59,902 bases of DNA, taken from NCBI GenBank assembly GCA_035500675.1, contig DATJXA010000132.1, positions 1-59,902 of the forward strand. The letters run 5' to 3'. The translations under genes were made by a program, and so were the position numbers. The notes beneath the pieces are model-generated. The model was not told the DNA's origin, did no database searches, and saw nothing but the letters and a program-made list of their open reading frames with translations. Each line of letters starts with the position of its first letter. Position 1 is the first letter of the stretch. This document shows positions 28,808 through 40,689 of this stretch, one piece after another. Source of the DNA: Bacteroidota bacterium. GTDB lineage: Bacteria > Bacteroidota > Ignavibacteria > UBA10030 > UBA8401.

Positions 28808-30937
28808 CTACTTTCCTTTCATCAGTTCGATGTATTCCGGTTCATTCCGGATCGGGTCGAGATCGGGGTCACGCTTGATCCATTCATAAAATCCATACCC
28901 CGACCCGATTGCTTTCTTCAACGCCTGGAGCGCGAGCGCCTTGTCTCCAACATTTGCGTAGAAACATGCTGCATTGTAGAACATCAGCGGATCGTTCGGG
29001 CTCAATTCGATGGCTCGTGCCGCTTTGGCTTTCGCCTCGTCGAGATGGTCAGTTCGCACCAAGACAAGGGCGTAGAAGATATGAGCCCGCGCGTCGTCGG
29101 GATGCTGCAACAGGTAACGCGGGAACATTTCCATGGAAGCCGTGAGCCATTTCTCAACGTTTTCCTTTTCTTCCAGGCGGCTGTAACACAGCACGATGTC
29201 GCCATAGGCTGTATAAAAATCGGCGTTGAGTTCGACAACCTTCCGGAACATCTCTGCCGCTTCCCGCACGCGGTCGGTGGTGACATACGTTCGGCCGAGT
29301 ATCCAATAGGCGGTATGATTGCTCGGGTTCAGCTCGATCGCTTTCTGACTCGATTCCAGTGCTTCGCCGTGCGACTTCTTATAAAGATAGACGAGACCCA
29401 ACGCGGAATACGCCTCGGACAATGAGGGGTCGTACATCAACGCTTTGAGGCCTGCTTCCAGCGCTTTGTCCAGCAGGGTATCGTTCCTTTCGAACTGTTG
29501 GTAGAGGTGCGCGTACGCCTCGCTTAACCCCGCATACGCGTCGGCATATCGCACGTCATACTCGATTGCTTTTTGAAAAAGTTCGATCGCGATCTGCACG
29601 CCGTTTTTTGTGAACCGATACATCGAGTCTCGTGCGCGCAAATTGCAATCGAATGCCTGAGCGCTCAACGTCGGACGCTTTGTGAGCACCACCTGCTCTT
29701 TCGGGGTGAGTTTGACCATCAGGGCATCGACGATCTGTTTTGAAACTTTTTCCTGAATATCAAAAACGTCCTCGAGCTTACCTTTGTACGTTTCCGCCCA
29801 GAGCTGCGCGTCTGCGTCGACATCGACGAGCTCGACGGCGATGCGGAGGTTGTCCTGAAATTTTCTGACGCTTCCCGCAAGGATGTAGCGCGTGTCGAGC
29901 TCTCGTCCGATCGTCTTGACGTCCTTGGTCGTCGTTTTGTACTGCATCGATGTCGTCCGCGGCACGACCCGAATATCTTTGAGCCTAGACAAGTTGATGA
30001 TCAGCTCTTCCGTAAGGCCGTCGCTGAAATAGTCGCTTTCTTTATCGGGACTGATATTGCCGAACGGGAGTACAGCGATCGCTTTTGTCTGGGGTTGAGT
30101 CTGGGCGCTTTCGATCGCCTTGAGTGTGTCCTGTAAAGAGTGGAGCACTTCATCGGCAGTTTGATAGCGCTGCAACCGATCCTTCGCCAGCATCTTTTTG
30201 ATGAGAGAGTCTACTTGATGGGGAATTTTTCTGTCCATCAGGCTTGGAACGGGAGGATCTTCGTTCACGATCAGATAGAGCAATCCGGCTTCATGTTCCG
30301 ATTTAAATGGAAGGTCGGCGGTGAGTATTTCATAGAGCACGACACCCAGAGACCAAATATCGGACCGCTGATCGGCGGCTTCGCCCTGAGCCTGTTCGGG
30401 CGACATGTACGACAACGTTCCGAGCGATGTGCCGGTTCTTGTCAAACCGGAACTGCTTTTAAGTTTCGCGATGCCGAAATCCATGATCTTGAGCTTTCCG
30501 TCGTTCGTCAGCATGACGTTTTCCGGCTTGATATCCCGATGGACGATATTTTTTCCATGGGCCGCCTTGAGCCCTTCAGCGATCTGCGATGCCCACGCGA
30601 TCGCCTGCTGCACCGGAACGCCCGTCCCTGATTTCAAATTTGTCATGTATCTCTTCAGAGTCGTCCCTTCGAGATACTCCATCACGAGGAACATTCCGTC
30701 GTCGTGCTCATCGATCTCATACACGTTAAGGATGTTCGGATGATTAAGGGATGCAGTCGCCTTCGCCTCTTGAAGGAATCGCGCTTTACTGTCTGCAGAC
30801 GCTGAAAGGTGAGAAGGAAGGATCTTGATCGCGACCATACGGTCGAGCTTCAGGTCCTGGGCCTTATAGACAACGCCCATACCGCCTTCGCCGAGCTTTT
30901 CGAGAATTTTATAGTGTGAGATTGTTGAACCGATCAT
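28808..30937 (-). CDS. Hanks-type Ser/Thr protein kinase (STK1) with TolB-N-like domain and TPRs
   Basis: LGEGGMGVVY, VAIK, HRDIKPEN, DFG; AIAVLPFGN...YFSDGLTEELI; TPRs ending YNAAC...DPDLDPIR. Confidence 0.95.
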   Translation of the reverse strand: MIGSTISHYKILEKLGEGGMGVVYKAQDLKLDRMVAIKILPSHLSASADSKARFLQEAKATASLNHPNILNVYEIDEHDDGMFLVMEYLEGTTLKRYMTNLKSGTGVPVQQAIAWASQIAEGLKAAHGKNIVHRDIKPENVMLTNDGKLKIMDFGIAKLKSSSGLTRTGTSLGTLSYMSPEQAQGEAADQRSDIWSLGVVLYEILTADLPFKSEHEAGLLYLIVNEDPPVPSLMDRKIPHQVDSLIKKMLAKDRLQRYQTADEVLHSLQDTLKAIESAQTQPQTKAIAVLPFGNISPDKESDYFSDGLTEELIINLSRLKDIRVVPRTTSMQYKTTTKDVKTIGRELDTRYILAGSVRKFQDNLRIAVELVDVDADAQLWAETYKGKLEDVFDIQEKVSKQIVDALMVKLTPKEQVVLTKRPTLSAQAFDCNLRARDSMYRFTKNGVQIAIELFQKAIEYDVRYADAYAGLSEAYAHLYQQFERNDTLLDKALEAGLKALMYDPSLSEAYSALGLVYLYKKSHGEALESSQKAIELNPSNHTAYWILGRTYVTTDRVREAAEMFRKVVELNADFYTAYGDIVLCYSRLEEKENVEKWLTASMEMFPRYLLQHPDDARAHIFYALVLVRTDHLDEAKAKAARAIELSPNDPLMFYNAACFYANVGDKALALQALKKAIGSGYGFYEWIKRDPDLDPIRNEPEYIELMKGK

Positions 30938-30974: not shown

Positions 30975-31629
30975 TCGACCCCAAAGGGGTCGAATTGTAC
31001 AGGACCGGGGCAACGCCCCGACTCATATTGGAAACAAGCCTCTATGAACCCTGAAAGGGTGAAACAATTATGTCAATCCCAGATATAACGTTCATCAAAT
31101 TTGATCTTGTATGCATTCAAAAATGCACGATACTCATCTTGAAAAATTTTCTTACGATGATGCTCTTCTTGGTTTGCAATATATTTTTTTACACGCTCAA
31201 CCTCAGATTGACCTACAGAAAATGCGCCATACCCGTTCTGCCATGCGAATTTGGACAAGAGCCCCCCTTTCGACTTGATCCATTTCGATGACCCGCGTTT
31301 GATTTCGCCTACTACCTTTGCGATAGAGAGATTGCGCGACAATGAAGAAAGAATATGCACATGATCTGCAACTCCTCCAACAATCAAAACGGGACAATCG
31401 AGATTTTTACACGTGCCGCCGAGATAGGCGTGTAATTCTTTGCGTACAGTTTTGTCAACGAGAAATGGGAACCTGTGCTTCGTCGAAAAAACAATGTGTA
31501 TCAGAACGTTCGCAAGTGATTGAGACATATCCCCCCCCCATATAACCCTTTCAGGGTTACTGATTAGTACGGTTTGTTGTGTGCCGAGGACGATGTCCTC
31601 GGTTGAATTATGCTTCCCCCTTGGGGAAG
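30975..31629. mobile_element. Y1 transposase flanked by inverted three-hairpin modules (REPtron-like unit)
   Basis: Module 30975-31060 (+) and module 31543-31629 (-) enclose tnpA, with ACCCT-GAA-AGGGT hairpins nearest the gene on both sides. Confidence 0.7.
31073..31528 (-). CDS. tnpA: IS200/IS605-superfamily Y1 (HUH) transposase, RAYT-like
   Basis: IHIVFSTKHR, HUH motif DHVHIL, SSKWI, WQNGYGAFSV, catalytic Tyr in KYIANQEEHH. No adjacent tnpB. Confidence 0.9.
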   Translation of the reverse strand: MSQSLANVLIHIVFSTKHRFPFLVDKTVRKELHAYLGGTCKNLDCPVLIVGGVADHVHILSSLSRNLSIAKVVGEIKRGSSKWIKSKGGLLSKFAWQNGYGAFSVGQSEVERVKKYIANQEEHHRKKIFQDEYRAFLNAYKIKFDERYIWD

Positions 31630-34528: not shown

Positions 34529-36886
34529 TTATTTCACCAAACCGGATTTTTTCGTCAATGCAATGAACCTCGGTTCGGTTCGGATGTCATCCCACGCGTC
34601 GTCAATGAGGAGGTTCCCGAACCAGATGCTGTGGTCGTTAAAATCTTTCTCGAGCATTTCCAGGGCTTTTTCTTTATCCCCAAGCCCTGCATATATTCTG
34701 GCGATGTTGTATGCCGAACCGGTTCCTTCGTTGTACCTGCGCTCGTTCTCTTTCAGAAGCTTGAGGGCTTTGTCCCTCATGTTGTGCTTTGCATAGAAGT
34801 ATGCGAGAGAGGATATACATTCGCTCGAACGTCCCGACAACTCCACGGCTTTTTCGAGCTGTGCCTGGGCATCGGAATATTTTTTTAAGCGATTATTTGC
34901 GATCCCTTGCCATTCATACCCGACCGCAAACGACGGGTCGAGCTCGACCGATTTTGTAAAATAGCCAAGCGCGTCTTCATACTGTCCGCGAAGAAGCGGG
35001 ATGAGGCCTAAGTTAATTTCGATGATGGGGGAAAACGGGTCGAGCTCGTGCGCCTTTTGGATCATTGCCGAGGCCTCTTCTGTACGCCACGTCCTAACAA
35101 GCATGATGTTGTACCAGTGATACGCCGTCCCGTACCGCGGGTTCAGCGAAATGGCTTGTTTGAATTCCCGCTCCGCATCATCATATTTCCATTCTTGAAC
35201 ATAGCAGAGTCCGATTGTGGCGTGAGCTTCTGCGAGCGAATTATCGAGATCGAGCGCGCGACGGGCAGATGCCAATGCCATGGGCACCGTGACACTTGTC
35301 GGGATTCCAGAATATTGCGATTGGAGGACGTAACAGTCTGCCAGCCCCGAATAGGCGAGCGCATAGGTCGAATCCAGCACAATTGCTTGATTCAAATATC
35401 CGATCGCGCGCACTATCGAAGCGGCGGTGCGTTTGTTCCAGTAATACCGTCCTTGCAGATATAACTGATATGCCTGAGTGTTAACAGTGGATGGCTGGGT
35501 AATTTTTTCCCGAGTCTCCGTCGAGAGCCCGATGCCAAGCTTCGATGACACGTCGTCAGTGATTTGCTGCTGCAACGAAAGAAGGTCCGTCATCGAGGAA
35601 TGATAAAGATTGCCCCACAATTCCGATTGCCGGTTGACGTCGATCAGATCGACCTGAACGTCCAGGACCTGGCCACGATGAGTGATCGTTCCCGACAGAA
35701 CCGCCCCGACATTTAATTTCGACCCGATGGCCTGAATGTCCATCTCTTTTCCCTTGAACCGGAACACGGTGCTGCGTGGAATGACCCTCAACGATGATAT
35801 TTTCGTGAGATTGTTGATGATACTTTCGGTGAGGCCGTCCGAAAGATATTCCTGTTCCTGCGACGCGCCGGCATTTTCAAACGGAAGCACCGCGAGTGAA
35901 TCGATCCCCTTCGCGCGGCCGCTGTAAAAATAGGTCGCTAGTGCTATCAACACCACTGCGAGGCCCACGGAGCCGAAGATGAAAAAATTTTTCTTCGGCA
36001 TAGACTTTTTAACAACGGGATGATCTTGTTCCACCGGAGGAGCGGCCGCATCGACCATCGATGGACGCATGACTCTCGACGTTTTCTTTCGCTCGCGCCG
36101 CAATTCGCTCACCATGTCGGCGACCGATTGATAACGATCCTCCGGATTTTTTTCGAGCGCCCGTGCGATAATGCGCTCAAGTTCCGGAGATGCTCCCGGT
36201 TGAACCTTCGTTAACGGCGTCGGTTCCTCGTTGACGATGGAATAGACCATTGCTGCTTCATGTTCGCCGCGAAAAGGTAGCTTGCCCGTCAACATCTCGA
36301 AGAACAAGACGCCAAAGGAAAAAATGTCGCTCCTGTAATCGACTTCTCCTGCCTGGATTTGTTCCGGCGCCATGTAGCCGAGCGTTCCAACCGTGCTGGA
36401 GGTGCGTGTGAGCTTCAACGATCCTTTCAGCTTTGCCAACCCGAAATCCATCACCTTGACCTGGCCCTTCGAGGTCAGCATGATATTGTCGGCTTTGATA
36501 TCCCTGTGGACGATCCCTTTGGAATGAGCTTCTTGCAGCGCCTCGCCGATCTGCGCCGCTATAACGATCGCATCGTCGGATTTTGCAAAGGGAATCTTCT
36601 CGCCGAGAGTTCCGCCGTCGATGTATTCCATTGCGATGAAGAGCTGTCCCTCGTGTTCCTCGACTCCGTAGATCGTGCAGATATTGGGATGATTGAGTCC
36701 CGCTGCGGCTTGCGCTTCCTGAAGAAAACGTGCCTTTGCAGTCTCATCCTTCGTCACCCTGTCGGGAAGAAATTTAAGAGCCACGTTGCGGTTCAGCGTC
36801 GTATCGTGGGCCTTGTAGACAACGCCCATTCCTCCTTCGCCGAGCTTTTCAAGAATTTTATAGTGAGAAATAGTTTGTCCTATCAC
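34529..36886 (-). CDS. Hanks-type Ser/Thr protein kinase (STK2) with TM, TolB-N-like domain and TPRs
   Basis: GTG start; LGEGGMG, VALK, HRDIKADN, DFG; TM segment; SLAVLPFEN...YLSDGLTESII; TPRs. Confidence 0.95.
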   Translation of the reverse strand: MIGQTISHYKILEKLGEGGMGVVYKAHDTTLNRNVALKFLPDRVTKDETAKARFLQEAQAAAGLNHPNICTIYGVEEHEGQLFIAMEYIDGGTLGEKIPFAKSDDAIVIAAQIGEALQEAHSKGIVHRDIKADNIMLTSKGQVKVMDFGLAKLKGSLKLTRTSSTVGTLGYMAPEQIQAGEVDYRSDIFSFGVLFFEMLTGKLPFRGEHEAAMVYSIVNEEPTPLTKVQPGASPELERIIARALEKNPEDRYQSVADMVSELRRERKKTSRVMRPSMVDAAAPPVEQDHPVVKKSMPKKNFFIFGSVGLAVVLIALATYFYSGRAKGIDSLAVLPFENAGASQEQEYLSDGLTESIINNLTKISSLRVIPRSTVFRFKGKEMDIQAIGSKLNVGAVLSGTITHRGQVLDVQVDLIDVNRQSELWGNLYHSSMTDLLSLQQQITDDVSSKLGIGLSTETREKITQPSTVNTQAYQLYLQGRYYWNKRTAASIVRAIGYLNQAIVLDSTYALAYSGLADCYVLQSQYSGIPTSVTVPMALASARRALDLDNSLAEAHATIGLCYVQEWKYDDAEREFKQAISLNPRYGTAYHWYNIMLVRTWRTEEASAMIQKAHELDPFSPIIEINLGLIPLLRGQYEDALGYFTKSVELDPSFAVGYEWQGIANNRLKKYSDAQAQLEKAVELSGRSSECISSLAYFYAKHNMRDKALKLLKENERRYNEGTGSAYNIARIYAGLGDKEKALEMLEKDFNDHSIWFGNLLIDDAWDDIRTEPRFIALTKKSGLVK

Positions 36887-37023
36887 AATATTTTTCTCCC
36901 CCTCCCGCCAAAGAACGGCGGGATGCTCAAATTTTCAATCCCGCAAAAAAGCTGCGGGAGAAAATTTGGCACTTCGCCGAGCTTCTCGAGGATTTTATAG
37001 TGCGATATTGTCTGTCCGATCAT
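36835..37023 (-). repeat. 52-nt direct repeat (36972-37023 vs 36835-36886) flanking an 85-nt double-hairpin insert
   Basis: 43/52 identical; 8 synonymous changes plus ATG/GTG. Hairpins at 36928-36968 and 36903-36923. Confidence 0.9.
36883..37023 (-). CDS. Unannotated 46-aa leader ORF duplicating the STK2 N-terminus
   Basis: MIGQTISHYKILEKLGE-VPNFLPQLFCGIENLSIPPFFGGRGRKIL*. TGA (36885-36883) overlaps the STK2 GTG. An alternative ATG lies at 37026. Confidence 0.6.
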   Translation of the reverse strand: MIGQTISHYKILEKLGEVPNFLPQLFCGIENLSIPPFFGGRGRKIL

Positions 37024-37034
37024 CATCGCTTCAA

Positions 37035-39719
37035 TTATTTATTTTCCACCAGATTCTGCCAGTTAAAAATGAGCGACCCGTTTTTCAGAGATTGAGTGTT
37101 CAATGTCCGCGTCACCAAAATTTGTTTTCCGTCTCTCGAGATATCCATGACGTTTGTCTGAAATCCGGCGTCGATTTTAAACAGCTGTTTCGTTTGGCCG
37201 ACATTGATCTCATTTCCCGAGATGGTGACAGGGACTGAAAATACTTGCTGGTTATTGAGCGTGTACATAATCTCCCTGCCGTTATTGAGCCATCGGGGCT
37301 GCTCGCCACCGTTCGTCGATACCTGCCACTTGCTCGGTGAGCCGTCGGTCGGCCTGATGTAGACTTCGTTTTTGCCCGTTTCATCCGATTCATACGCGAA
37401 CCATTTTCCATCGGGCGAAAATGTCGCGAGCCATTCGTCAAACTCGGAGGTCAATAACGGAGTGTATTTCTTTTCTCTTATGTCGTACATCCCGACATCC
37501 CATTTTTGCACACCTTGCGTGTTGATGGACAGAAGCAATTTATTCCCATCATGTGAGACGTCGGTGACATAGGAACTGGTGTTCCCGGCATAGATCAAGT
37601 GCTCATCGCCTGTACCGTTGCTGTTTTTCTCGTAGATGCTGAAAACCCCGCTGGCGTTCGAGCTGAAATACACCTTGCTGTCGTCCGGCGACCATGAAGG
37701 GACGAGCTCGGTGCCTTTATCAAATGTAAGACGCGTGTCGGAGTTACGCTGAGTGTCATGGATCCATAAATCGGTATTCTTTGCCGATTCGTCCAATGCA
37801 TCGGTCGCAACGTATTTTCCGTCGGTGGAAAACGCCGCCCACGTTGTCGCAACTTTTGATTGCATCGTATGTTGGATGACGCCGTTCGCACCGTAAATGA
37901 CCATTTCATTATCGGATTTTGCCGTGCCGAGATACGCCAGTCGACCATCCCTCGAAAATGAAAAAGTCCCTTTGCTTCGCACCCTTGCGTATAAAACGCT
38001 TTCCAAAATCGGGATCGGCTCGCCTTTCAATTCCAAGGAACCGTCGTCGAATCGTTGGGCAAGCAAAGAATTTTGTTTATAATAGAGCACCCATCCGCGA
38101 TTGTAAACGATATTACTCGATGCGTGGACGACAATTTTATTCTTCGTATCGCCGAGAGAAGCTACACGAATATGGTCTGCGTCTTCCTCGAGCGACGGTT
38201 TGCTTGTCTGGACAGTGTAAAAGAAGTGGTCCCCGTCGGGCAAAAAATATGGCCAGCGATGATTTACTTCATACTCGGTCGAGTCGAGCCGAGTAAGTTG
38301 CTTCGCTGTTCCTCCTGCCGAAGAGACTTGATACAACGGCCCACTGCTGCTCGGCGCGAAGATAATCACCCCATCCTTATTCCACGTCCCGCCTCTTCCG
38401 TCCGTTGCGTCACAAACGGTGAATGACGGTCCCCCTTTTGCATCGATCTTTTTGAGCTTTCCGTCAGCAAAGTACGCGATCATTCTGCTGTCATACGACC
38501 AAAACGGATAGGACGCATTTTCAGTGCCCGATAAAAGCAAAGGCGTCGGTGCATCCAGTGGCCGCACCCAGAGGTGATCTTTCCCGAGAGAGTCGACAGC
38601 GACGAACGCAATCATGCTGCCGTCGGGGGAAATTTCCAGATGGCCTCCGACAGTTGAATTGAAAATATTTCCTTTAGGGGCTTCGAACGAGAGTTGAATC
38701 AACTCAGGCCCTTTCTTAATAAATAGAAAGTACCATCCTACGACAGCGATCAGCAACACCGACAAAGCAATCGAGGCAGCCATCCAAACATTGAAAGGTA
38801 ATGCCTTCTTCTGCGGAAGCGTTTCGTATTCCGCAGTTTGAGGAGCGATCCTCGTCCCGGATGAAATCTGGCTCTTGCGCACGGCAAGAATTCTGCTTGC
38901 GGTCTGGCGGCTCGATTCACGTTTAAGTTTTCGAAGATCCTTGACGATCTCCTTTGCGGATTGATACCGCTCGTCCGGGTCTTTTGCGAGACATTCAAGG
39001 AGAATTGCATCGAGGTCGGTGGGCACGTCTGGCTTGAGGATCGAGATCGGTTCGGCATCGACATTGACGATCTCGTAAATGATGGCGGTCTCATGAACGC
39101 CTTTGAACGGCGATTGCCCCGATATCAATTCATACAACAGAACGCCGAAGGAAAAGATATCGGTGCGGTGATCGACGTTGAACCCCTGCACCTGCTCGGG
39201 CGACATATACCCCACTGTTCCGACGGTATTGCCTTCCCGTGTCAGACGCGAAACGCCCTGAAGTTTCGCCAGGCCGAAATCCATGATCTGCACGAGACCG
39301 TCCTTCCGCAGCATCACATTTTCCGGCTTGATGTCCCGATGGACGATCCCCTTTTCATGGGCGGCAGCTAATCCCTCCGCAACCTGGATCCCGATGTCGA
39401 TCGATTGTTTGAAAGAAATATTGTTCTTCCTGTCGCGCAGCGTTTCACCGTCGATGAATTCCATTGCGATGAACAACTGGTCTTCATATTCCGCGACATC
39501 ATAGATCGTGCAGATATTGGGATGATTCAGAGTAGCGGCGGCTTTCGCCTCCTGCATAAATCGCTGGCGGTCGGACTCAGTGGAAGAGACGCTCTTCGTC
39601 AAAAATTTAAGTGCAACAAACCTGTCGAGTTTGGTGTCCCTGGCTTTATAGACGATGCCCATGCCACCTTCGCCAAGTTGCTCGAGAATTTCATACTGAA
39701 GAATCGTTTTACCAATCAT
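37035..39719 (-). CDS. Hanks-type Ser/Thr protein kinase (STK3) with TM and TolB/PD40 beta-propeller
   Basis: LGEGGMG, VALK, HRDIKPEN, DFG; TM; ISPDG, FWSYD, WSPDD, FSPDG repeats. Confidence 0.95.
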   Translation of the reverse strand: MIGKTILQYEILEQLGEGGMGIVYKARDTKLDRFVALKFLTKSVSSTESDRQRFMQEAKAAATLNHPNICTIYDVAEYEDQLFIAMEFIDGETLRDRKNNISFKQSIDIGIQVAEGLAAAHEKGIVHRDIKPENVMLRKDGLVQIMDFGLAKLQGVSRLTREGNTVGTVGYMSPEQVQGFNVDHRTDIFSFGVLLYELISGQSPFKGVHETAIIYEIVNVDAEPISILKPDVPTDLDAILLECLAKDPDERYQSAKEIVKDLRKLKRESSRQTASRILAVRKSQISSGTRIAPQTAEYETLPQKKALPFNVWMAASIALSVLLIAVVGWYFLFIKKGPELIQLSFEAPKGNIFNSTVGGHLEISPDGSMIAFVAVDSLGKDHLWVRPLDAPTPLLLSGTENASYPFWSYDSRMIAYFADGKLKKIDAKGGPSFTVCDATDGRGGTWNKDGVIIFAPSSSGPLYQVSSAGGTAKQLTRLDSTEYEVNHRWPYFLPDGDHFFYTVQTSKPSLEEDADHIRVASLGDTKNKIVVHASSNIVYNRGWVLYYKQNSLLAQRFDDGSLELKGEPIPILESVLYARVRSKGTFSFSRDGRLAYLGTAKSDNEMVIYGANGVIQHTMQSKVATTWAAFSTDGKYVATDALDESAKNTDLWIHDTQRNSDTRLTFDKGTELVPSWSPDDSKVYFSSNASGVFSIYEKNSNGTGDEHLIYAGNTSSYVTDVSHDGNKLLLSINTQGVQKWDVGMYDIREKKYTPLLTSEFDEWLATFSPDGKWFAYESDETGKNEVYIRPTDGSPSKWQVSTNGGEQPRWLNNGREIMYTLNNQQVFSVPVTISGNEINVGQTKQLFKIDAGFQTNVMDISRDGKQILVTRTLNTQSLKNGSLIFNWQNLVENK

Positions 39720-39862
39720 CGCATAATTTCCTTTCCCCTCCCGCCGAAAAACGGCGGGATTCTCAAAATCACTGCCACTCGCTGAGTAGGGCTCGTGGGT
39801 GATTTTGGAACTTCGCCCAGTTGCTCGAGAATTTCATACTGAAGAATTGTTTTACCGATCAC
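39668..39862 (-). repeat. 52-nt direct repeat (39811-39862 vs 39668-39719) flanking a 91-nt double-hairpin insert
   Basis: 48/52 identical; 3 synonymous changes plus GTG/ATG. Hairpins at 39764-39807 and 39739-39759. Confidence 0.9.
39716..39862 (-). CDS. Unannotated 48-aa leader ORF duplicating the STK3 N-terminus
   Basis: AAGGAG RBS then GTG; MIGKTILQYEILEQLGE-VPKSPTSPTQRVAVILRIPPFFGGRGKEIMR*. TGA overlaps the STK3 ATG (ATGA). Confidence 0.65.
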   Translation of the reverse strand: MIGKTILQYEILEQLGEVPKSPTSPTQRVAVILRIPPFFGGRGKEIMR

Positions 39863-39945
39863 AAGTCGCTCCTTTCAAACTGATAACTGCCACCGCACTC
39901 TACCGAACCCTCGATGTTAAACAAGAGAAGATAGGAGAAATCGTT

Positions 39946-40689
39946 TCAATGAGTGAACCATTCTGCCGTAAGACAGCGGTACACTTTTGTCGTCAGATCC
40001 TCGCTTGTCGCCGATGTTGTCGTCGCGCTCGCGTGAGAAACCCGCCAGCGGACCGAAGCCGGTAAAATTTTATAGATCGATTCCAACAGCTCGCCGATCG
40101 AATGGATACCGGGCGACTGAAGTTCAACGGTCTCGTCCCAGAATGAAATGACGTGGAACTTGTGCTGTTGACGGAGAAGGATCAGGTCGATGAACCCTTT
40201 ATGAGCTTTATATTTTGGATGGATCTCAGACGCGAAAAGAGCTTCGAATGTATTGACTTGATCTTCCTGGACAGTGAGCTCAAGGATCTGAACGGCAAAC
40301 GGTTTCGCTTTGAGCTTGCTGATGTTCTCCGAGCCGGCGACGGATCCGTCAAATCGTTCGATTGTCGGCTCTATTTGGATCGGAGTGTATTCGAGAGACA
40401 GGTCTTCCGTCAACTCCAGTTTCCATTCGTTTGAATCGGCAAAATATGGCCGGAGCGAATCGACCAATTTAGTATACAAGCCGCTCTTTTCATAGTCTTC
40501 CGAATCTTTGCGGGATTTCCAGATTGTGAGGGAAATACATTCCTGCGGTTTGTCGGTATTTTGGAGCAGCGAGGCAAATGCGCATCCCTTTGTGGAGCGA
40601 AGAGCAGAGAGCACCGACTGCGCATAGGCCTCGGCATTCTTCTCCGATTCCTCGGCGCGTATGATGTGAGTGACAAGCCTTAGAAACAT
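39946..40689 (-). CDS. Tandem ABM (dimeric alpha/beta-barrel) domain protein
   Basis: ALRSTKGCAFASLLQ...ISLTIWKSRKDSEDYE; second repeat HKGFIDLILL...VISFWD. Confidence 0.75.
   Translation of the reverse strand: MFLRLVTHIIRAEESEKNAEAYAQSVLSALRSTKGCAFASLLQNTDKPQECISLTIWKSRKDSEDYEKSGLYTKLVDSLRPYFADSNEWKLELTEDLSLEYTPIQIEPTIERFDGSVAGSENISKLKAKPFAVQILELTVQEDQVNTFEALFASEIHPKYKAHKGFIDLILLRQQHKFHVISFWDETVELQSPGIHSIGELLESIYKILPASVRWRVSHASATTTSATSEDLTTKVYRCLTAEWFTH

Follow-up and report, generated by a model that had tools for sequence, protein, structure and literature searches.

Two kinase genes with displaced 5′ ends

We describe here a structured repeat element of about 72 nt, referred to as the cassette, which occurs twice in a 59,902-nt stretch of DNA from an Ignavibacteria genome (contig DATJXA010000132.1; this whole stretch is called the window, and all coordinates refer to it). 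Both copies precede genes for Hanks-type Ser/Thr kinases, and all the genes concerned lie on the minus strand. The first kinase, K2 (37035-39719; 894 aa), joins a Pkinase domain to PD40 beta-propeller repeats, and the next, K1 (34529-36886; 785 aa), joins a Pkinase domain to TPR repeats. At both loci the order is flank, a displaced kinase 5′ end of 52 nt (the left copy, or stub), the cassette, a spacer of 15 or 18 nt that contains a Shine-Dalgarno-like sequence, and the right copy of the 52 nt with the remainder of the kinase gene; the window can thus be read as a chain of leader 2 (stub and cassette), K2, leader 1, and K1. We demonstrate that the cassette belongs to a family with a covarying fold and two classes of target, that the target segment is duplicated around it, that an empty site exists for K2, and that the leaders obey a rule of frame and stop position. 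This combination of features appears to be undescribed, and no description of the element was found in the literature. We favor, with moderate confidence, the explanation that the cassette is an Ignavibacteria-wide structured repeat which was inserted with a long target duplication and which is tolerated in kinase genes by means of translational coupling.

The K2 stub (39811-39862), the displaced native 5′ end of K2, consists of GTG, 16 codons, and a G, has an AAGGAG of its own 7 nt upstream, and differs from the present K2 5′ end (right copy, 39668-39719) at 4 of 52 nt, comprising three synonymous changes and the start codon. It opens leader open reading frame (ORF) 2 (39716-39862; 48 codons), which passes through cassette 2 (39738-39811, columns 1-74 of the covariance model described below; 95.2 bits, E 1e-21), with the distal hairpin at 39760-39810 and the proximal hairpin at 39739-39759, and then through spacer 2 (GGGAAAGGAAATTATGCG, 39720-39737), in which the Shine-Dalgarno-like GGAAAGGA stands ahead of the K2 ATG. 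The TGA stop of this leader overlaps the K2 start codon (ATGA), and the leader and kinase starts are 143 nt apart (2 mod 3). The K1 stub (36972-37026; ATG ATG, 16 codons, and a G) is likewise a displaced kinase 5′ end; it begins 8 nt past the K2 stop codon and shows eight synonymous and no non-synonymous differences from the K1 5′ end (right copy, 36835-36886). From it leader ORF 1 (36883-37026; 47 codons) runs through cassette 1 (36902-36972; 78.6 bits, E 2e-17; distal hairpin 36924-36971, proximal hairpin 36903-36923) and spacer 1 (GGGGAGAAAAATATT, 36887-36901; Shine-Dalgarno-like GGGGAG ahead of the K1 GTG) to a TGA that overlaps the K1 start codon (GTGA), 137 or 140 nt (2 mod 3) separating the two starts. 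Codons 1-17 of each leader repeat codons 1-17 of the next kinase, and the predicted leader peptides are MMIGQTISHYKILEKLGE-VPNFLPQLFCGIENLSIPPFFGGRGRKIL (leader 1, 47 aa) and (V)IGKTILQYEILEQLGE-VPKSPTSPTQRVAVILRIPPFFGGRGKEIMR (leader 2, 48 aa). The first-pass annotation of this DNA, which had described the two inserts (36887-36971 and 39720-39810) and their hairpins, was silent on the small minus-strand leader ORFs within which both inserts lie.

A covarying double hairpin in kinase and tRNA genes

The inserts have in common a 35-mer around the proximal hairpin (plus strand, 36899-36933 and 39735-39769) with four differences, in keeping with the 31 of 35 nt given at first pass; a 26-nt core with two Y positions, searched with up to three mismatches, occurs exactly twice in the window, and any match at all was obtained in 0 of 100 shuffles. 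On the coding (minus) strand the proximal hairpin reads TCCCGCCG-TTCTT-TGGCGGGA with a G.U closing pair at K1 and TCCCGCCG-TTTTT-CGGCGGGA with a G-C closing pair at K2, the second difference between them being a loop position. The differing distal stems (CAAATTTTC/GAAAATTTG and CAAAATCAC/GTGATTTTG) and the nested TCCCGC-N9-GCGGGA mini-hairpin, which replaces the distal apex of cassette 1, are also present as the first-pass annotation had described them. Both inserts fold into two adjacent hairpins (cassette 1, -39.3 kcal/mol, z -4.9; cassette 2, -36.9 kcal/mol, z -3.9), and none of 200 shuffles folds as well.

The proposal that structure is conserved amid changing sequence holds well beyond these two copies. 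Seven copies fold alike, with 97.6% of cells paired against 36-47% when the partners are slid, and compensatory double changes are present in 10 of 24 pairs; none of 500 shuffles reached the observed values. In the set of 95 distinct copies, the paired share of cells is 97.0% (33-49% in slid controls), a figure that is inflated because this alignment was fitted to the covariance model, and double changes occur in 20 of 24 pairs, with 356 compensatory cells. The fold is real and under selection. In its family-wide form it consists of a long distal hairpin with the conserved apical motif CCYRCGAGYG...RCGAGYRG, followed directly by a short GC-rich proximal hairpin, and no Rfam 15 covariance model matched either strand of 36500-40200 at E <= 1. 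The first-pass annotation had noted that the exchange of G-C for G-U keeps pairing on the coding strand; as an argument for a sense-strand RNA this does not generalize: in the 22 inner pairs of the 95 copies, 2002 cells are canonical, 24 are G.T, 11 are A.C, and 17 are other (97.5% Watson-Crick), and the complementary strand folds equally well (-37.2 and -36.3 kcal/mol). Stems so nearly pure in Watson-Crick pairs, folding equally on both strands, do not favor RNA over single-stranded or cruciform DNA. The same argument made from the G.U pairs of the seven copies was weakened by the 24 G.T against 11 A.C in the larger set and by the equal folding of the two strands.

The covariance model was made from the cassette alone, with no kinase sequence, and it recovers about 100 full-length copies (E 1e-8 to 1e-20) in 9 of the 12 genera of the family. 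An exact pattern, checked on known copies and then run over one genome per species (185,579 species), gave 35 loci, all of them in Ignavibacteria metagenome-assembled genomes (MAGs), some mislabelled by their submitters. The labels carried by the element-bearing records L168, L179, L183, L162, and L192 include Chitinophagaceae, Chitinophaga pinensis, Zixibacteria, and Chlorobiaceae; since L168 is the same contig as G019:C261, which belongs to the Ignavibacteria genus of the window, these labels look like taxonomic misassignments. Two candidate results were discarded. An assessment of lineage specificity from a codon-degenerate IPPFFGGRG search, which returned only the window copies within the family, had missed variants such as CTTTTT loops, and a partial model match at G048:C62 that suggested a full-length "master" element was merely a contig end.

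Copy number per genome is low, ranging from 2 to about 20. The genome of the window (3.32 Mb) has two exact copies of the palindrome, both within gene 5′ regions at kinases, and one further match with two mismatches. The first-pass annotation had reckoned with the palindrome being an abundant genome-wide repetitive extragenic palindrome (REP) as the finding that would speak against it; this is not so in this genome and is half true of its relatives, where the 21-nt proximal palindrome alone has about 78 matches in G016 and about 56 in G020. This 21-nt sequence is the core of a longer repeat (..aaatgtcatgctgaTCCCGCCG..GGCGGGAgaagcatccatgaca..gaagcctcgtagattcac..tgtcatggattcttcac) resembling a miniature inverted-repeat transposable element (MITE), which is abundant in G016 and G020 and absent from the genome of the window; it was seen at L033, L037, L078, L082, L083, L090, L091, L093, L094, L101, and L103 in the sister species G013-G020, and also at L007, about 330 nt upstream of the G016 K2 gene. 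Of about 50 kinase starts in the genus, five have the hairpin at -36 to -39, and all of them show the stub-cassette-spacer architecture; they span three paralog lineages, namely K1 of the window, K2 of the window together with its ortholog in G011, and a K3-type gene present in both G016 and G019. In another genus (G048), a seventh copy was found along with a serial arrangement.

All copies whose target could be identified are located either in the 5′ portion of a Hanks-type kinase gene or within a tRNA gene. A kinase start follows in 38 of 57 distinct copies found with nhmmer; most of the remaining 19 are inside kinase leader arrays, in which the next start belongs to a further stub or the contig breaks off, and the others are at tRNA genes. 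The tRNA targets are His, Arg-TCG/ACG/TCT, Val-TAC/CAC, and Gly-CCC, in either orientation. The target at L172 was not identifiable, and the tRNA-linked L124 and L182 depart from the standard arrangement. Kinase junctions fall after codon 4, 18, 20/21, 26/27, 30, or 38, leaving stubs of 13, 52, 60, 76-82, 90, or 114 nt; in tRNA genes the junctions are located after position 9/10, within anticodon loops, and within T-arms, and an intact gene follows each. Because the element is also found in tRNA genes, and in both orientations, it is not kinase-specific: the motif is a lineage-wide repeat element and not a kinase-specific regulatory RNA.

In almost all readable copies the interrupted gene segment is repeated past the cassette and a short spacer, where it runs into the intact gene, and the original segment is left upstream as the stub. 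The length of this duplication varies from 12 to 114 nt. At the loci of tRNA-His, Arg, Val, and Gly, the insert stands between direct repeats of the tRNA gene end, and the gene is restored. Left junctions are varied (..AAG, ..ATG, ..TAG, ..TAA, ..TTC, and ..AAC), and model columns 1 and 74 are always the neighboring bases of the target itself, so that the element proper (columns 2-73) is set directly between two nucleotides of the target, and a short target-site duplication is lacking. The broken copy extends 6-14 nt past the cassette before the intact copy begins. This extension is clear at tRNA genes, as in tRNA-Arg with CTCAATCGG after the cassette, and also in the kinases with 60-nt stubs, whose spacer GGTGTGATCT+ATG parallels codons 21-25 (GGT GTG GTC TAT A..). 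Tandem arrays of stub, cassette, and spacer are found in G015, with four 137-nt units directly upstream of a kinase, and in G030, with six 95-nt units ending in an intact tRNA-Arg.

Hairpins of other kinds were observed at some of these targets. Mini-hairpins (TCCCTAAGGGA.., TCCCGCATAAAGCGCGGGA, and GGGATCTCCCGAAGGGATTCC) lie inside truncated tRNA copies (the tRNA loci L116 and L127, and also L128 and L164) and, taken with the similar TCCCGC-N9-GCGGGA at the apex of the K1 cassette (36937-36957), suggest a second, smaller family of inserting hairpins. In L163, L169, and L187, all from Ignavibacteria MAGs, kinase 5′ stubs are interrupted by a different insert (..GGCGG followed by CCCTGYCCRCCGG..), after which come a fresh start codon and N-terminus, and kinase 5′ ends thus appear to accumulate several kinds of insertion in series.

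Leader translation and the origin of the duplicated ends

The leaders of kinase genes share a reading-frame rule. In 37 of them the stub length mod 3 is 1 (25 leaders) or 0 (12) and never 2, and the two cassette frames in use encode unrelated peptides (VPKSPTS..LRIPPxFGG and SRNCLRAFSASS..), which indicates that the encoded peptide is not the conserved feature. A functional cassette peptide (VPKSP..IPPFFGG) is ruled out by the second junction class, which reads the other frame (SRNCLRAF..). The frame statistics that follow refer to the 32 leaders with stubs of at least 50 nt; five 13-nt stubs break the rule. The distance from the leader start to the next start is 2 mod 3 in 30 of these 32, and among the distinct leader lengths (134-206 nt) in 13 of 15 (binomial P 3e-5, which is only a guide since the copies are not fully independent). 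The leader stop is at +1 (NTGA) in 28 and at +4 in three, and in all 32 the frame in use runs through cassette and spacer without a stop, which is so of only 28 of the 64 unused frames. This comparative evidence suggests that ribosomes translate the leaders across the hairpins and that it matters that they terminate at the kinase start. The idea put forward at first pass, that a ribosome on the leader could open the hairpins, gains indirect support from the stop-free frame and from the ending on the kinase start in 30 of 32, and such passage is plausible on these comparative grounds.

In the explanation that we favor, the element would have entered its target gene with a long duplication, leaving a stub upstream and an intact gene downstream. 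The stub would retain the native ribosome-binding site and start codon, and ribosomes starting there would translate through both hairpins and stop at the TGA of the (A/G)TGA on the kinase start, so that translation of the kinase would be coupled to that of the leader; the spacer would contribute a Shine-Dalgarno-like sequence of its own. Such coupling may be what makes insertions into kinase genes tolerable. The element is presumably mobile, now or formerly, and its hairpins may be kept at the DNA level for a trans-acting propagation machinery or for recombination. The duplication itself could arise by integration of a unit carrying the gene end, either Campbell-type or site-specific; by template switching, in which the cassette and a short donor flank would be copied before a return out of register; or by insertion into a pre-existing partial duplication. 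All three routes are compatible with the data.

We think it unlikely that the stub ORF and double hairpin are instead a dedicated cis-regulatory leader, that is, a host-selected translational control of Ser/Thr kinases in which an RNA function, such as coupling to translation capacity or to a hairpin-binding factor, would conserve the structure. The frame and stop rule and the stop-free used frame do point to selection on leader translation, the K2 leader has been kept since the genome of the window (G000) and G011 split, the covariation is strong, and the cassette occurs only at kinases in this genome. However, the same cassette and architecture are present at untranslated tRNA genes in both orientations, tandem multimers exist, and orthologs have the cassette only sporadically (at about 5 of the 50 kinase starts of the genus), the G016 K2 and G013 K1 orthologs being without it. 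Furthermore, the stems are near-perfect palindromes with few G.U pairs that fold equally on both strands, and the Shine-Dalgarno-like sequence is not occluded in the predicted folds.

The relatives of this genome bear directly on the origin of the repeated 5′ ends. The K2 ortholog of G016 (84% aa identity) has no insert and that of G011 (80%) has one, and the native upstream region of the G016 gene aligns with the flank of the K2 stub in the window; with this empty site and aligned flank, the window differs from G016 by an insertion with a target duplication of about 52 nt. The repeat is single at the G016 site and double around the insert in the window and in G011, and the insert holds no mobility gene. 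The K1 ortholog of G013 is also free of the insert. The K2 cassette is more similar to that of the K3-type paralog in G019 (86%) than to that of its own G011 ortholog (80%), and in the non-orthologous, mosaic pair L190 and L180 the flank, stub, and cassette are 95-98% alike whereas the sequence downstream is only 67-74% alike, which indicates that cassettes move or recombine between loci. The kinase arrays themselves vary: in G011 one tandem array (L056, G011:C2:38500-58400) holds seven Hanks-type kinase genes, and the genome of the window has three kinases in an array and two distant ones and is without the K4 paralog that follows K2 in G011 and G016.

In both window pairs the left copy is nearer to insert-free orthologs than the right copy. 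The K1 stub has 4 differences from the gene after K2 in G011, and the K1 5′ end has 8 and is at least 7 from every kinase of the genus; the K2 stub has 7 and 9 differences from the K2 genes of G011 and G016, respectively, and the K2 5′ end has 9 and 12. The eight changes from the K1 stub to the K1 5′ end are all synonymous, with third positions shifted to A/T, and to judge by its sequence the K1 stub may be what is left of the leader or gene of K4, which in relatives comes next after K2. Codon differences between stub and kinase come to 221 synonymous and 104 non-synonymous; as an alternative to selection on the stub peptide, the two copies might derive from two functional genes.

A history with neither insertion nor duplication has to be considered here, although we judge it improbable. 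The stubs would then be all that remains, at the 5′ end, of upstream tandem kinase paralogs that lost their bodies through recombination between intergenic REP-like cassettes or through a deletion starting at the cassette end, and the likeness of stub and kinase would come from a conserved paralog N-terminus. Such a history agrees with the tandem arrays of up to seven kinases, with the greater likeness of the K1 stub to the K4 gene after K2 in G011 and G016 (4 against 8 differences) in a genome that is without K4, with the synonymous excess (221:104), which would be expected of two formerly functional genes, and with the common flank, stub, and cassette that L190 and L180 have ahead of different kinases. 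Yet the K2 stub has K2-specific residues (IGKTILQYEILEQLGE), and at the empty site of G016 the same flank is joined to one copy only; in G016 and G019 each stub varies together with the kinase that it precedes (EKIGE vs. EKLGE), that of G019 being identical to its own kinase 5′ end at 52 of 52 nt. Deletion of paralogs hardly accounts for stubs of 13 nt or for tRNA targets, most of which, tRNA-His for example, are single-copy, and an intermediate with a long pseudogene was found in none of the 57 instances.

Programmed translational bypassing, in which ribosomes would leave the message at the end of the stub and resume at the corresponding codons of the second copy, as happens in phage T4 gene 60 and at the "byp" hairpin inserts of yeast mitochondria, is very improbable, for although identical codons (..GGC GAA G) in stub and kinase flank a strongly structured insert, no stop follows the putative take-off codon, the leader continues without a stop for another 30 codons or so to end precisely at the kinase start, the kinase has an independent start codon and Shine-Dalgarno-like sequence, codons 1-17 of the second copy would be superfluous and are nevertheless intact, and the tRNA insertions would be left unexplained. 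Mutagenic repeats like those of diversity-generating retroelements were ruled out, as the differences between copies are not adenine-specific.

Some observations weigh against insertion of a mobile repeat with translational coupling, in addition to the inflated pairing percentage mentioned above. No mobilizing enzyme, excision product, or insertion polymorphism was seen, and the public sequencing runs, as assembled contigs, show no joint from which the cassette has been removed. With only two copies, the element may be inactive in this genome. The Shine-Dalgarno-like sequence of the spacer is not masked in the predicted folds, so that coupling may not be strictly required for translation of the kinase. 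Finally, the K1 stub is nearer to the 5′ end of another paralog than to that of K1, which at this locus fits cassette-to-cassette recombination and not a simple duplication. In run X2, a 142-nt unitig over cassette 2 and the flanking repeat (39676-39817) has a depth of 82.6 compared with 32-36 in adjacent contigs; this could reflect collapsed extra tandem units or sharing with other strains.

Comparison with known systems and meaning of the element

The element resembles REP sequences, MITEs, and integron attC sites in being defined by structure, and tRNA-targeting integrative elements in regenerating its target, but it departs from what defines the REP, MITE, and integrative elements and probably also from what defines attC sites. 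Like REP/BIME/REPIN repeats and the prokaryotic MITEs (Correia, ERIC, RUP, and Rickettsia palindromic elements), it is short, non-coding, hairpin-forming, and present in several copies within a lineage; such repeats are often transcribed with neighboring genes, their copies serve as recombination substrates, and the Rickettsia palindromic elements can lie inside genes as the cassette does. Unlike them, the cassette lies inside essential genes rather than between genes, its duplication rebuilds the gene, and its copy number is low. The high intergenic copy number typical of the REP/REPIN-RAYT system is not seen in this genome, and neither a RAYT nor an insertion sequence (IS) partner of the cassette was identified. 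An IS200-like Y1 transposase ORF (31073-31528, minus strand; Pfam Y1_Tnp, E 2.8e-27) does lie directly upstream of K3 (28808-30937, minus strand), a third kinase paralog further downstream of K1. The three small hairpins that follow this ORF (ACCCTTTCAGGGT, CGGGGCGTTGCCCCG, and CGACCCCTTTGGGGTCG; feature span 30975-31528) are unrelated to the cassette and form a distinct repeat family, and the cassette model has no match there; the Y1_Tnp ORF is thus not a cognate RAYT flanked by the same REPs. The terminal inverted repeats and short (2-10 bp) target-site duplication of a classical MITE are lacking, a long and variable duplication being found in their place, and the varied left junctions and long duplication also differ from the insertion 3′ of a fixed tetra- or pentanucleotide, without duplication, of an IS200/IS605-derived PATE.

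Insertions with long target duplication have been described before (2010, PMC2853133, citing earlier Helicobacter pylori work), and the cassette is like them in being flanked by direct repeats, tens of bp long or longer, of which the empty site has one copy, in having no transposase or integrase within the unit, and in the variable length of the repeat; the 52-nt repeat at K2 is a duplication of this type. Those units, however, are kilobase-sized gene cassettes at varied sites, whereas here the unit is a structured sequence of about 72 nt, specific to gene ends, with two recurrent classes of target. With the tRNA-targeting integrative elements that carry a replacement gene end in attP, the cassette shares the regeneration of the target, the displaced fragment left as a direct repeat, the anticodon-loop and T-arm positions, and the tandem arrays. 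It differs from them in that the same-orientation cases replace the 5′ and not the 3′ part of the gene and in that the 5′ ends of protein genes are also hit, and no integrase lies inside the units, which at 95-205 nt have no ORF other than the leader.

A hairpin conserved with free covariation, and a short conserved motif set in a variable stem-loop, are likewise features of attC sites and of IS200/IS605 ends. In a reading by eye, however, neither the R/L box organization nor the GTTRRRY core of attC was made out in the cassette, and its arms do not seem to match the consensus in the right orientation, though many junctions are of the form G|TT; unlike IS200/IS605 ends, it has no fixed target tetranucleotide. 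No associated IntI or TnpA was found for the cassette, no search aimed at intI having been made. With regard to translation, the arrangement recalls coupling by overlapping stop and start codons (ATGA) and the unmasking of downstream starts that depends on a leader ORF, in which structured sequence separates the leader start from the main start; it differs from known coupling leaders in that the leader is formed by the duplicated first codons of the main gene and passes through a repeat element.

It is possible, and we suggest it only tentatively, that the cassette represents an undescribed class of bacterial miniature mobile element, defined by its hairpins over about 72 nt, mobilized in trans or by copy choice, which would invade the conserved ends of essential genes (tRNAs and a large kinase family) and be "self-healing", each integration restoring the gene by a long target duplication. 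In protein genes such an element would survive only with a coupled leader ORF, and hosts may have co-opted the leaders to tune their kinases. In practice, cassette loci yield spurious small ORFs, apparent pseudo-tRNA arrays, and contig breaks in Ignavibacteria MAGs, which the cassette model could flag, and these sequences allow a direct test of how the duplication is created. If our explanation is true, a small repeat element can colonize the interior of essential genes without killing them, and the Ignavibacteria would offer, at dozens of independent junctions, a natural record of visible selection on translational coupling across a stable double hairpin.

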